Shown here: positions 487-5,124 of the stretch, piece after piece
Numbering within the stretch: position 1 is the stretch's first letter
Layout: every line of letters starts with the position of its first letter
DNA from: a virus
Lineage: Duplodnaviria > Heunggongvirae > Uroviricota > Caudoviricetes
Virus record (IMG/VR): IMGVR_UViG_2585427739_000007
Length of the DNA stretch: 5,124 bases
Strand: one strand, 5' to 3'
Translations under genes and position numbers: made by a program
The notes under the pieces: generated by a model
Databases searched by the model: none
Told to the model about the DNA's origin: nothing
What the model saw: the letters and a program-made list of their open reading frames with translations, nothing else

Positions 487-1514
<1,028 letters not shown>

Positions 1515-1627: not shown

Positions 1628-1888
1628 ATGGATTACACAAATCTACCTAAACAAACTTTTGCTGATTTAATCGCACTCAGGCAAGCAGTCGTAGCTCTAA
1701 TCAACTTGTTGCCGGAGAAGGAAAAGGAATTAGTTAAAGTGCTTCTTAACAGAACTGCCGCCGATTTTTCATCATATCCACTGACAGATGACCTTGCGGA
1801 CCTTCCTGAATTAATTGCAGCGTCCGCCAATAAGCTTACTGAAGAGATTTACCCTCCTCAAAAATCTTCACAAAATTCCTGCGAGTAA
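1628..1888 (+). CDS. Hypothetical small acidic protein, 86 aa, convergent with the lysis genes
   Basis: ATG at 1628 is preceded by AGAGG (1618-1622) at 5-nt spacing. A strong intrinsic terminator lies 22 nt past the stop. The translation is protein-like (helical N-terminus, acidic C-terminus), whereas the overlapping minus-strand ORF 1633..1830 is Ser/Ala/Arg-rich as expected of an antisense frame. It fills an otherwise unexplained ~320-bp gap between two minus-strand genes. No homolog recognised. Confidence 0.4.
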   Translation: MDYTNLPKQTFADLIALRQAVVALINLLPEKEKELVKVLLNRTAADFSSYPLTDDLADLPELIAASANKLTEEIYPPQKSSQNSCE

Positions 1889-2387
1889 CTTCAATGCAAT
1901 AATCGTAAAACGCCGCAAACTGCTCATCGCGGCGTTTTTTTTCATCTTCAGAAGGAATCAGCACCGACAATTTTTTATTCAGATCAGCGACGCTGCCCTC
2001 CAGTTTTTCAATGGGCGATTCAATATCATCTTTTTCTGACCGCAATGCCGTCGGTGGCGTCTTCAGAGAACCAGTAATTCTTCCCGGTAGCTTTCCTTTG
2101 TAGGTTATCCACACATTCTGCGCCTCTAAAATTATGGGGCGCTTTTCCGGCGACTGCTCATCCCCTTCACATAACCCGGCAGCAACATCCAGGAAGACCT
2201 GTCTGATGCTCCTTCTGGCTGCTGCCTCATAAAACTCCAGCGCGGCACCTTCAACACGGTCCAGCGAGATGTCCAGGTCAAAAATTTCACCGTCAAAGTG
2301 TTTTTTGTCCCGTAAGGCTACAGTTACCGCCACTTTATTCTCAAAATTGCGAACTCCTTTCACAACCAGTTCATAGTCTTGAGTCAT
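1836..2387 (-). CDS. Hypothetical protein, 183 aa, between pinholin and endolysin (same position as ydfR/DUF1327 in Qin-type prophages; family not verified)
   Basis: ATG at 2387 lies 4 nt after the holin TAA stop, with a purine-rich GAGAAGAGAG stretch upstream. The ORF track shows a TTG-initiated extension to 2408, but the ATG is the more plausible start. Soluble, acidic, protein-like translation; no transmembrane segment. Function not recognisable by eye. Confidence 0.6.
   Translation of the reverse strand: MTQDYELVVKGVRNFENKVAVTVALRDKKHFDGEIFDLDISLDRVEGAALEFYEAAARRSIRQVFLDVAAGLCEGDEQSPEKRPIILEAQNVWITYKGKLPGRITGSLKTPPTALRSEKDDIESPIEKLEGSVADLNKKLSVLIPSEDEKKRRDEQFAAFYDYCIEVTRRNFVKIFEEGKSLQ
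1910..1942 (+). terminator. Rho-independent terminator for plus-strand transcription
   Basis: Stem ACGCCGC (1910-1916) pairs with GCGGCGT (1929-1935) around a 12-nt loop, followed by T8 (1935-1942). On the minus strand the same hairpin is followed by only TTTT, so it is a weaker terminator in that direction. It lies inside the 3' coding region of the 183-aa minus-strand gene. Confidence 0.55.
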
Positions 2388-2391
2388 TGGA

Positions 2392-2607
2392 TTACTCTCT
2401 TCTCGCAACCTTACGCCTGTCTTCTTTAATCTTGAAATAAAGGTTTGTCAGATACGTCAGCATGCCAAATACCAGACTACCCAATACACCTATTGCCGCC
2501 CACTGTGAGGGCGTGACTTTATCGAGCAACTGTAAAAACCAGTAGCCAGCACTGCCTGCAGAGGTGCTGTAGGCGATGCCCGTTGTTAACTTATCCATGG
2601 ATTTCAT
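2392..2607 (-). CDS. Class II pinholin of the phage 21 S21 type, 71 aa, with dual-start motif
   Basis: Translation [71 protein letters not shown] closely resembles phage 21 S21 and E. coli EssD/EssQ as I recall them. Two hydrophobic segments are present. Dual starts (ATG at 2607 and 2598, giving MKS-MDK) are typical of antiholin/holin pairs. A strong GGAGGTGAGG Shine-Dalgarno lies just upstream. The ORF-track extension to 2691 is not supported. Confidence 0.85.
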
Positions 2608-2697: not shown

Positions 2698-2728
2698 AAA
2701 AAGAAAAACGCCAGCAATTATTCTGGCG
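2698..2728 (-). terminator. Rho-independent terminator for minus-strand transcription, between the AraC-like gene and the holin
   Basis: On the minus strand, stem CGCCAG/CTGGCG (2709-2714 with 2723-2728) around an 8-nt loop is followed by TTTTTCTTTTT (2698-2708). It sits 70 nt downstream of the AraC-like stop and ~90 nt upstream of the holin start, positionally analogous to lambdoid tR'. Confidence 0.55.
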
Positions 2729-2797
2729 TAGCTAAAAATATCGTATAATCTTACACTTCAAAAAATAACTTTATAAAATGCCATCACATCATATCTT

Positions 2798-3511
2798 CTA
2801 AGAAAATCTTGATAAATATTGGTGCGGAGGCACACCAAAATATCCTCTAAAAACACTTACAAAATATGATGCATTGTCATACCCGCATATTCCCGCCACC
2901 TTGCCGACAGTATGGTTACTGTAGATCAATAATCTTTGCGCCATCATCATTCGTTCTTCAAGAATTAATTTACTAAACGATAATCCTTCGTCTTTTAATT
3001 TTCTTTTTAACAAACTCTCGCTCATATATAATCTTGAAGATATATCACAAAGTCTCCATGACGCTGAGATATCCGAGTGAATAATAGCCTTAACTTTACA
3101 ACCTAAGCTATTAAGACTTCCGAACAAAAAACTTTGCACTATTTTCTCTGAAGATAAGACAGCAAGACATGCAAGTGATATTTGATTTCTAACTACATCC
3201 ACGGTTTTGCTATCACAATTCAAGCATGCAACCAAGTTCCTTAACAATGAAAAATCTTCACATTCTACTATCAAGTATGACGGATAAAACCTTCTTACAG
3301 AAAAAGGTGAGAGTGTGTAGTTTTTAAAGAAATCATTAACTGTTTTCTCCTCAATATCTACGATCATTAGATGATCTGTATTTGACGAAAAAAGATCTTT
3401 TAAATTGTATTCAATGAGGACAGCATTTCCTTTTTTAAACAAAATATCTTCTTTACCAATTCGGACACCAAACGAGTTCAACACCAAAATGATAGAACAT
3501 ATGTATGGCAT
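2798..3511 (-). CDS. AraC/XylS-family transcriptional regulator of the AppY/YdeO-like subfamily, 237 aa, in an AT-rich island
   Basis: C-terminal double helix-turn-helix signature (WRLCDISSRLYMSESLLKRKLKDEGLSFSKLI...GKVAGICGYDNASYFVSVFRGYFGVPPHQY). The N-terminal half resembles my recollection of DLP12 AppY (e.g. ILFKKGNAVLI and LMIVDIEEKTVNDFF segments). ATG at 3511 has an AGGTGG Shine-Dalgarno 5 nt upstream; the GTG at 3520 used by the ORF track is less likely. Base composition is strongly AT-rich relative to the flanks. Confidence 0.8.
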   Translation of the reverse strand: MPYICSIILVLNSFGVRIGKEDILFKKGNAVLIEYNLKDLFSSNTDHLMIVDIEEKTVNDFFKNYTLSPFSVRRFYPSYLIVECEDFSLLRNLVACLNCDSKTVDVVRNQISLACLAVLSSEKIVQSFLFGSLNSLGCKVKAIIHSDISASWRLCDISSRLYMSESLLKRKLKDEGLSFSKLILEERMMMAQRLLIYSNHTVGKVAGICGYDNASYFVSVFRGYFGVPPHQYLSRFS

Positions 3512-3926
3512 ATTATCCACCTGATATCATTGGGGTTACACCAGGTAAGTATAGGTGGAAAATCAATATTCGCCAGTTCAACAATAAGGAAAATCTCATT
3601 GCATCACAACTATAAAACCATGTGTTTAACTCACAAAAAACAAATCATTAAACTAATCTGTTATATTATAATAGCTGCGTGCAATAATAATATTATATGC
3701 TCTTTATATTCACTTGAAATATCTTCATATAAAACAGATTGAATAAAATCTTTTGGGGCTGGTATGTTTACCAACATTAAATTGCATCTCAATGTTTTCT
3801 TTAGCGTGAACAGGATTTTTATAAAAACTGACACTATGAGCATCATAGCGTAGTTTTTACGATTGTAAATATCCTGCATACAGGAACTCATCACTTTCAG
3901 ATGATATCGCATACAGTTAATTCACC
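3512..3926. other. AT-rich non-coding leader upstream of the AraC-like gene, abutting the IS3 insertion point
   Basis: Very AT-rich with many TATAAT-like hexamers on both strands and no convincing ORF. It probably holds the regulator's promoter and is a plausible nucleoid-protein (H-NS-type) binding region. Its right edge is the IS3 junction. Confidence 0.4.
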
Positions 3927-3991
3927 TGATCTTACCCAGCAATAGTGGACACGCGGCTAAGTGAGTAAACTCTCAGTCAGAGGTGACTCAC

Positions 3992-4291
3992 ATGACAAAA
4001 ACAGTATCAACCAGTAAAAAACCCCGTAAACAGCATTCGCCTGAATTTCGCAGTGAAGCCCTGAAGCTTGCTGAACGCATCGGTGTTACTGCCGCAGCCC
4101 GTGAACTCAGCCTGTATGAATCACAACTCTACAACTGGCGCAGTAAACAGCAAAATCAGCAGACGTCTTCTGAACGTGAACTGGAGATGTCTACCGAGAT
4201 TGCACGTCTCAAACGCCAGCTGGCAGAACGGGATGAAGAGCTGGCTATCCTCCAAAAGGCCGCGACATACTTCGCGAAGCGCCTGAAATGA
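3992..4291 (+). CDS. insE: IS3 transposase OrfA (InsE), 99 aa
   Basis: Translation [99 protein letters not shown] matches IS3 InsE; helix-turn-helix plus leucine-zipper-like region. GAGGTG Shine-Dalgarno upstream of the ATG at 3992; the GTG at 3983 in the ORF track is probably not used. Confidence 0.85.
4254..4258 (+). other. Candidate programmed -1 ribosomal frameshift motif (AAAAG) for the IS3 OrfAB fusion
   Basis: AAAAG lies near the 3' end of insE, with insF in the -1 frame. IS3-family transposases are produced by -1 frameshifting and the IS3 site has been reported as an A-AAG-type motif (from memory). No downstream structure was verified. Confidence 0.4.
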
Positions 4292-5124
4292 AGTATGTCT
4301 TTATTGAAAAACATCAGGCTGAGTTCAGCATCAAAGCAATGTGCCGCGTGCTCCGGGTGGCCCGCAGCGGCTGGTATACGTGGTGTCAGCGGCGGACAAG
4401 GATAAGCACGCGTCAGCAGTTCCGCCAACACTGCGACAGCGTTGTCCTCGCGGCTTTTACCCGGTCAAAACAGCGTTACGGTGCCCCACGCCTGACGGAT
4501 GAATTGCGTGCTCAGGGTTACCCCTTTAACGTAAAAACCGTGGCGGCAAGCCTGCGCCGTCAGGGACTGAGGGCAAAGGCCTCCCGGAAGTTCAGCCCGG
4601 TCAGCTACCGCGCACACGGCCTGCCTGTGTCAGAAAATCTGTTGGAGCAGGATTTTTACGCCAGTGGCCCGAACCAGAAGTGGGCAGGAGACATCACGTA
4701 CTTACGTACAGATGAAGGCTGGCTGTATCTGGCAGTGGTCATTGACCTGTGGTCACGTGCCGTTATTGGCTGGTCAATGTCGCCACGCATGACGGCGCAA
4801 CTGGCCTGCGATGCCCTGCAGATGGCGCTGTGGCGGCGTAAGAGGCCCCGGAACGTTATCGTTCACACGGACCGTGGAGGCCAGTACTGTTCAGCAGATT
4901 ATCAGGCGCAACTGAAGCGGCATAATCTGCGTGGAAGTATGAGCGCAAAAGGTTGCTGCTACGATAATGCCTGCGTGGAAAGCTTCTTTCATTCGCTGAA
5001 AGTGGAATGTATCCATGGAGAACACTTTATCAGCCGGGAAATAATGCGGGCAACGGTGTTTAATTATATCGAATGTGATTACAATCGGTGGCGGCGGCAC
5101 AGTTGGTGTGGCGGCCTCAGTCCG
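4288..5124 (+). CDS. insF: IS3 transposase OrfB (InsF, DDE integrase domain), truncated by the window end
   Basis: Translation begins [36 protein letters not shown]... and matches IS3 InsF. The ATG overlaps the insE stop (ATGA) in the -1 frame. It is absent from the ORF track because no stop codon occurs before 5124. Confidence 0.85.

Follow-up and report, generated by a model that had tools for sequence, protein, structure and literature searches.

A PatE/Psr-like AraC-family regulator gene carried as a putative moron between Q and the holin gene of a Qin-like lambdoid prophage

The 5,124-nucleotide stretch of DNA analysed here in full (the window; IMG/VR record IMGVR_UViG_2585427739_000007) is 100% identical over its whole length to the genome of Escherichia coli NT1F25 (NZ_CP075472.1), in which it lies in a Qin-like defective lambdoid prophage beside rspAB/ynfA. 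Immediately upstream of the holin gene is an AT-rich segment encoding a regulator of the AraC/XylS family, and we consider it probable that this is a regulatory moron occupying the interval between Q and the holin gene, with its own promoter and a conserved terminator, and that its product most likely activates AT-rich host promoters, those of gadE and hdeA being the leading candidates. The protein represents an uncharacterised PatE/Psr-like clade within the known class of prophage-encoded AraC regulators, and the finding is thus ordinary in kind and challenges no current concept. An original prediction for this DNA had proposed a separately acquired, AT-rich island at the Q–S hotspot, with an AppY/YdeO-like AraC regulator insulated from the holin by a terminator; its composition, family, position and terminator are borne out here, with amendments as to the nearest relatives of the protein, the insulation of the holin and the right-hand edge of the island. 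The features of the segment are as follows.

2698..2729, minus strand: rho-independent terminator of the AraC cassette (stem 2729-2708, T tract 2707-2698)
2798-3511, minus strand: AraC/XylS-family regulator gene, 237 amino acids, WP_001146313.1, PatE/Psr-like (from Pfam, NCBIfam, PHROG and synteny)
3512..3916, minus strand: AT-rich spacer between the YbgA-like gene and the AraC gene, 31% G+C
3517..3522, minus strand: Shine-Dalgarno sequence AGGTGG, 5 nt before the ATG at 3511, read from the sequence
3548..3576, minus strand: candidate proximal sigma-70 promoter (-35 CTGGCG at 3576-3571, 17-nt spacer, -10 TATACT at 3553-3548)
3842..3869, minus strand: candidate distal promoter TTTACA-16-TATGAT, from a consensus scan (10/12 matches)

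The AraC-family protein and its relatives

In the program-made list of open reading frames (ORFs) the gene extends from 2798 to 3520, with a GTG start and 240 amino acids; the RefSeq start is the ATG at 3511, giving 237 amino acids, and the Shine-Dalgarno sequence that precedes it is invariant across all of the aligned homologues, including those at loci L014 and L015. The Pfam domains HTH_18 (3e-16; 59.9 bits, cutoff 33.6) and HTH_AraC (6e-11; 42.6 bits, cutoff 26.6) match residues 161–237, and the protein has the C-terminal domain of about 100 amino acids with two helix-turn-helix (HTH) motifs that defines the AraC/XylS family. There is also a match over the full length of the protein to phrog_1450 (1e-96), and the only current annotations of the clade are that PHROG's 'unknown function' and 'helix-turn-helix domain-containing protein'. 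The best NCBIfam profile is that of YdeO (residues 4–234), with 112 bits against an equivalog cutoff of 348, and the GadX profile scores 90 bits against a cutoff of 500; with scores so far under the curated cutoffs, we reject assignment to YdeO, GadX or any other named equivalog.

Over alignable positions, the protein is 47% identical to PatE (Z0321), 38% to PsrA (compared after re-extension to its upstream ATG), 34% to GadW, 30% to AppY, 28% to YdeO, and 26% to both GadX and EnvY. The description of the protein as AppY/YdeO-like therefore stands for the subgroup but not for the nearest relatives, which are PatE and PsrA, and orthology to YdeO or AppY is rejected on both score and identity. 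Membership of the GadW/AppY/YdeO/PatE/Psr group is nonetheless clear from the Pfam and NCBIfam matches and from the identities: the protein can be aligned from residue 1 with all of the GadX, GadW, YdeO, AppY, PatE and Psr members, and the recognition helix of its first HTH motif conforms to the S(E/P)SL(L/I)K.KL pattern of the subgroup, DNA-contact lysine included. This helix, SESLLKRKLK, is the same in PatE, and the lysine, K169, aligns with K170 of AppY, where a K170E substitution abolishes DNA binding (PMC10057817). An AlphaFold2 model, with a predicted local distance difference test score (pLDDT) of 86, has beta strands and helices in its N-terminal domain and seven helices in its DNA-binding domain, and the latter domain superimposes on GadX (3MKL) with template modelling (TM) scores of 0.87–0.91 and root mean square deviations of 1.2–1.4 Å. 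We conclude that the protein belongs to the acid-resistance/virulence branch of AraC regulators, and that it is closest to PatE and an orthologue of no named protein.

PatE, encoded in O-island 8 of enterohaemorrhagic E. coli O157:H7 EDL933, is the closest characterised relative over the full length; it is also prophage-borne and AT-rich, both proteins share an N-terminal MxxxCS(V/I)I motif, and a relative of PatE, P0016 (84% identical to it), occupies the same slot between Q and the holin gene. However, PatE itself lies beside tail-fibre and integrase remnants rather than between Q and S, and the two proteins differ at 53% of their sequence, in the second recognition helix and in the C-terminal tail. 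We therefore reject the view that the window protein is the orthologue of PatE; at 47% identity and in another context it represents a paralogous clade, and the true PatE-like proteins are P0016–P0018. The PsrA/PsrB proteins (Sakai ECs1087 in Sp4; EDL933 Z1789 and Z2104) are likewise AraC-like and encoded in lambdoid prophages downstream of Q, but the genes after psrA are a tRNA cluster and effector-associated cargo, with no terminator and holin directly following, and the hosts of the window gene, unlike those of psrA and psrB, are mostly commensal, laboratory or animal isolates. We note that PsrA (ECs1087; L006 18677-19390) is annotated as 195 amino acids in Sakai, and that the frame is open from an upstream ATG that gives 237 amino acids beginning MVVVCSVIM, a start that fits the conserved N-terminus of the family. 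Both PatE and PsrB are activators of gadE and hdeA, and the two Psr proteins act through GadE to repress type III secretion (PMC10877973); AppY binds the gadE P3 promoter and raises acid survival (PMC10057817).

The K-12 proteins AppY (of DLP12), GadW, GadX, YdeO and EnvY share the subfamily architecture and the DNA-contact lysine, and AppY is also prophage cargo, but identities are no more than 26–34% and appY is located beyond the tail-fibre genes and not in the Q–S interval. Among solved structures, CsvR, Rns and ToxT, which are fatty-acid-responsive virulence activators, give the best full-length fold matches (Foldseek E about 1e-11), and the sequence match to ToxT reaches into the N-terminal domain. 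Identity to these three proteins is only about 18–21%, and a difference in domain orientation holds the full-length TM score to about 0.44.

The Q-to-holin slot, its cargo and the terminator

The segment is AT-rich relative to both of its flanks, with a G+C content of 0.322 for 2698–3926, against 0.473 for the lysis genes (487–2607) and 0.540 for the insertion sequence IS3 (3927–5124). The AraC coding sequence has a G+C content of 0.335 (0.307 at third codon positions), compared with 0.43–0.54 for Q, the lipocalin, YbgA-like and lysis genes, and the 406-bp spacer upstream of it is lower still at 0.310; for runs of at least six A/T the densities are 35 per kb (island), 15 per kb (lysis genes) and 5 per kb (IS3). 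Because the lipocalin and YbgA-like genes have 43–44% G+C, the AraC gene and its spacer constitute a distinct compositional island nested within the cargo region.

Q lies outside the window and, for this prophage, was confirmed only from the source genome, where Q (PF06530) is followed in turn by a lipocalin gene on the opposite strand, the YbgA remnant, IS3, AraC and essQ. The intact order of Q, lipocalin, YbgA (PF04463 2-thiouracil desulfurase plus DUF1722), AraC and holin is found in strain 127, in the isolated temperate phages 1H12 (and its relatives) and IdasGreatGrand, in two prophages with DLP12-type lysis cassettes, and in all 80 of the IMG/VR viral contigs examined (those with enough flank); the proposed position at the Q–S hotspot is thus seen in the source genome, in isolated phages and in viral contigs alike. 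More distant homologues occupy the slot in other company: P0013 (60% identity) directly follows a Q of PF03589, P0016 (50%) directly follows a Q of PF06323, and at L015 holin, DUF1327 and lysozyme genes come directly after the homologue, with neither lipocalin nor YbgA. Elsewhere the same slot holds cspF/cspB, before essQ in K-12 Qin, and nmpC, before essD in DLP12. The location of distant homologues between other Q families and the holin indicates that the cassette is a mobile Q–S moron, and as PsrA of Sakai Sp4 is also encoded downstream of Q the arrangement has precedent. Separate acquisition is further supported by the point at which DNA homology with K-12 Qin and DLP12 begins, about 20–30 bp upstream of the holin ATG (about 2627–2636).

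In the Hendrix/Juhala sense of a moron, the slot is differently filled in related phages, the base composition is distinct and, as predicted in silico, the cassette has its own terminator. Such features are shared with the classical lambdoid Q–S morons, stx in 933W, nmpC in DLP12 and cspB/cspF in K-12 Qin, which sit in the same slot as exchangeable cargo between conserved flanks, with a distinct base composition and their own terminators. The window differs in that its cargo is a transcription factor, and not a toxin, porin or cold-shock protein.

The regulator could instead serve the phage or its neighbouring cargo, acting on the divergent lipocalin and YbgA/RudS-like genes or tuning late and lysis gene expression to an environmental signal. 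AraC-family proteins often control adjacent genes, the lipocalin, YbgA and AraC genes are always together in the closest clade (12/12 phage records and every IMG/VR locus with enough flank), and the best full-length folds are those of fatty-acid-responsive proteins, with a lipocalin gene as neighbour. We nevertheless regard this explanation as unlikely: the homologues of 50–60% identity are in the Q–S slot without lipocalin or YbgA; patE, appY and the mEp332-type homologues are located elsewhere in prophages; the YbgA-like gene has been destroyed in the window, whereas the AraC gene is intact and identical across many genomes; and host genes are the targets of every characterised relative.

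Of 5426 complete E. coli genomes, 996 (about 18%) have a homologue with coverage of 80% or more of the gene, as prophage cargo and not as a core regulator, and in 330 genomes its identity reaches at least 99%. Among the carriers are E. coli B REL606 (with the same allele), ATCC 11303, ATCC 8739 and isolated temperate coliphages. Comparison with four alleles, at dS of up to 0.6, gives ratios of nonsynonymous to synonymous divergence (dN/dS) of 0.21–0.23, falling to about 0.11 for the DNA-binding half; a ratio of about 0.2 is indicative of long-term purifying selection. These data bear on whether the gene might be a silent passenger, acquired DNA that is silenced by H-NS in a decaying prophage, without a current role and with an apparent conservation that reflects recent spread. 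It is the case that the prophage is defective and that the island has 31–33% G+C with many A/T tracts, and the 330 near-identical copies could be clonal descent; but purifying selection is evident over well-diverged alleles, the ORF is intact in every allele examined, those of plaque-forming phages included, and the terminator, Shine-Dalgarno sequence and -10 element are kept where the flanking spacer has diverged. A purely passive role thus seems doubtful.

The alleles also show signs of exchange. Relative to the IdasGreatGrand allele (L003 5001-5732), dS rises from 0.10 in the N-terminal half of the gene to 0.78 in the C-terminal half, which suggests intragenic recombination and a mosaic allele. 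Compared with L003, the C-terminal tail of the window allele is different and 6 amino acids shorter, and the sequence right after the stop codon is different; the terminator is identical.

The terminator lies 3′ of the AraC gene and before the S21-type holin, whose start is about 90 nt further downstream in every allele. Its stem, ACGCCAG/CUGGCGU, has 7 bp including five G-C pairs, with an 8-nt loop (-10.8 kcal/mol), and is followed by UUUUUCUUUUU ending at 2698; the region contains three terminator-like sites where 0.7 would be expected. The terminator does not vary among five diverged alleles, whose proteins are 76–86% identical and whose flanking spacers have diverged, and the exact hairpin is present at 65 of the 80 IMG/VR loci; 13 have a 1-nt deletion leaving a 5-bp stem, and two have point variants that change a G-C pair to G.U on the sense RNA, so that pairing is kept. 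At L015, with a homologue of 50% identity, another hairpin (CCAGCA/UGCUGG) and U run are in the same place. Because the break in homology to Qin and DLP12 falls between the hairpin and the holin, the terminator is part of the AraC cassette and not of the holin leader.

It seems quite improbable, then, that the hairpin and T tract form a late-operon checkpoint that holds the lysis genes strictly Q-dependent whatever gene is upstream. Q-dependent operons typically hold terminators that only Q-modified polymerase passes, and the constant distance from the holin start would suit this function; however, the hairpin travels with the AraC gene and not with the holin, as Qin and DLP12 carry other cargo and their homology starts downstream of it, and we note that the roles of cassette terminator and checkpoint are not mutually exclusive. 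The original claim that the holin is insulated needs to be narrowed to polymerase without Q modification, because, on established lambda biology, the Q-modified enzyme should read through.

Promoters and a proposed mode of action

Two candidate promoters precede the AraC gene. Transcription from the proximal one would start near 3541, and the TGGC of its -35 and the TATACTT spanning its -10 are invariant among five homologues down to 50% protein identity, L014 and L015 included, in a surrounding spacer that is not conserved; across the homologues the -35 element is (T)TGGCA-like. The distal candidate is the stronger of the two by consensus and is invariant in five YbgA-linked alleles; it overlaps a weak hairpin (3851–3831, -8.8 kcal/mol) with a T run, which could instead terminate the upstream YbgA-like gene. 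Both ends of the spacer are kept and its middle is poorly conserved, with about 54 nt at 3700–3755 (minus strand) inserted in comparison with the IdasGreatGrand and L010 alleles, and with larger indels in the comparison with 1H12. Two ORFs within the spacer are rejected as genes: one of 83 amino acids at 3661–3912 (minus strand), which has no family match and whose frame is broken by a 1-nt indel in alleles, and one of 70 amino acids at 3530–3742 (plus strand). In transcripts started further upstream, base pairing is possible between the Shine-Dalgarno AGGUGG (3522–3517) and a CCACCU at 3557–3552 that overlaps the proximal -10, and this pairing could tie translation to promoter choice. The hairpin that sequesters the Shine-Dalgarno sequence in the minimum free energy fold is a weak lead only, having a z of -1.15, and the anti-Shine-Dalgarno sequence is absent from L014 and L015.

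We infer the following behaviour. In a lysogen, transcription of the AraC gene would begin at one or more promoters of its own within the AT-rich spacer, which is probably silenced by H-NS, and would end at the conserved intrinsic terminator; as a consequence, we propose, the lysis genes are not expressed along with it. In lytic growth, RNA polymerase modified by Q would pass through the cassette and its terminator into the holin gene. The protein itself is predicted to be a two-domain activator, with a small beta/helix N-terminal domain and a double helix-turn-helix C-terminal domain, and by analogy with PatE, PsrB and AppY it may regulate host acid resistance by activating gadE and hdeA of the acid fitness island.

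Several observations weigh against this interpretation. The second recognition helix differs between the window protein and PatE (NASYFVSVFRGYFG and SVSYFTYVFRRYFG, respectively), and at 47% identity target specificity need not be common to the two. A scan for the high-affinity H-NS motif (TCGWTWAATT, with up to two mismatches), a binding prediction of the kind suggested at the outset, gave 29 hits against 20.6 +/- 4.5 expected, which is not significant and is uninformative, and the hits show no clustering within the island. Promoter-like sites are not enriched in the region (7, against 6.5 in shuffled sequences), and the proximal candidate is absent from the list given by the consensus scan because its -35 matches at only three of six positions. 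In NT1F25 the prophage is defective and, upstream of the distal promoter, only 58 bp separate it from IS3 and an adjacent 790-bp deletion, so that regulation in this strain may differ from that in intact phages. Finally, literature searches with the accessions of the protein and its neighbours and with keywords gave no paper naming the protein; PMC10877973 mentions 'six additional Psr homologs', which may include this clade.

PatE, PsrA/PsrB and AppY are established routes by which prophages rewire host acid resistance and virulence, and the clade described here is an uncharacterised candidate addition to the network of acid resistance and xenogeneic silencing. A much more speculative thought, to which we attach very little likelihood, is that the outer-membrane lipocalin, the RudS/TudS-like thiouracil/tRNA-s4U desulfidase and the AraC protein form a single lysogenic-conversion module, in which the AraC protein, given its fold resemblance to the fatty-acid-gated Rns, CsvR and ToxT, would sense a lipid or envelope signal and relay it to stress regulons of the host, to the adjacent cargo genes, or to the two together. 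As part of the same thought, the gene, which B strains of E. coli such as REL606 carry, could contribute, unrecognised, to regulatory differences between B and K-12.

The IS3 junction and the lysis genes

The remaining features of the window are the following.

1-376, left end of the window: IS2 terminus, inserted downstream of rzpQ
487-984, minus strand: spanin gene rzpQ, with an Rz1 lipoprotein gene embedded
537-791, minus strand: Rz1-type o-spanin lipoprotein gene, lipobox LTSC, in the +1 frame of rzpQ
981-1514, minus strand: endolysin gene rrrQ
1628-1888, plus strand: ORF of 86 amino acids between the DUF1327/YdfR-like ORF and the endolysin gene, full-length match to phrog_2572
1836-2408, minus strand: DUF1327/YdfR-like ORF, 190 amino acids, end-to-end match to phrog_2091
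2392-2607, minus strand: S21-type class II holin gene essQ, the first lysis gene, PF04971 (P21 holin S family, 9e-34)
3917..3926, minus strand: last three codons and stop of the prophage YbgA/RudS-like gene (PF04463 plus DUF1722), the rest deleted beside IS3
3927..5124, plus strand: IS3, from the left inverted repeat TGATCTTACCCAGC through orfA and on past the window end

Position 3926, given in the original prediction as the edge of the island, is the IS3 junction and not a natural boundary. The full IS3 element is 1258 bp (L001 16230-17487), and it and the adjacent deletion of about 790 bp have removed most of the YbgA/RudS-like gene. In E. coli B REL606, IS3 is inserted at the same 5′ site and the 3′ 831 nt of the YbgA/RudS-like gene are kept, and thus the NT1F25 lineage shows an IS3-adjacent deletion (the loci compared are window 3917-5124, L001 16230-17642 and L016 9739-11959). 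The YbgA/RudS-like gene and an oppositely oriented gene for a Blc-like lipocalin are conserved Q–S cargo in many lambdoid phages.

The late genes of the window are all on the minus strand. A scan of the whole window against Rfam gave no match at E <= 0.1. The N-terminus of the rrrQ endolysin resembles a signal-anchor-release (SAR) segment, and the holin (2392–2607) has the MKSMDK dual-start motif of S21, which together suggest that the lysis cassette is of the pinholin/SAR-endolysin type. For the DUF1327/YdfR-like ORF, RefSeq gives a truncated pseudogene only, and YdfR of K-12 has 103 amino acids. The embedded Rz1 gene parallels rzoQ of K-12 and is without annotation in NT1F25. The decay of the NT1F25 prophage is apparent from its truncated terminase and tail genes and its insertions of IS1, IS2 and IS3; carriers other than NT1F25 match the window from position 377 on only, and in NT1F25 a segment of about 3.5 kb containing the lysis and AraC genes is bracketed by IS2 and IS3.

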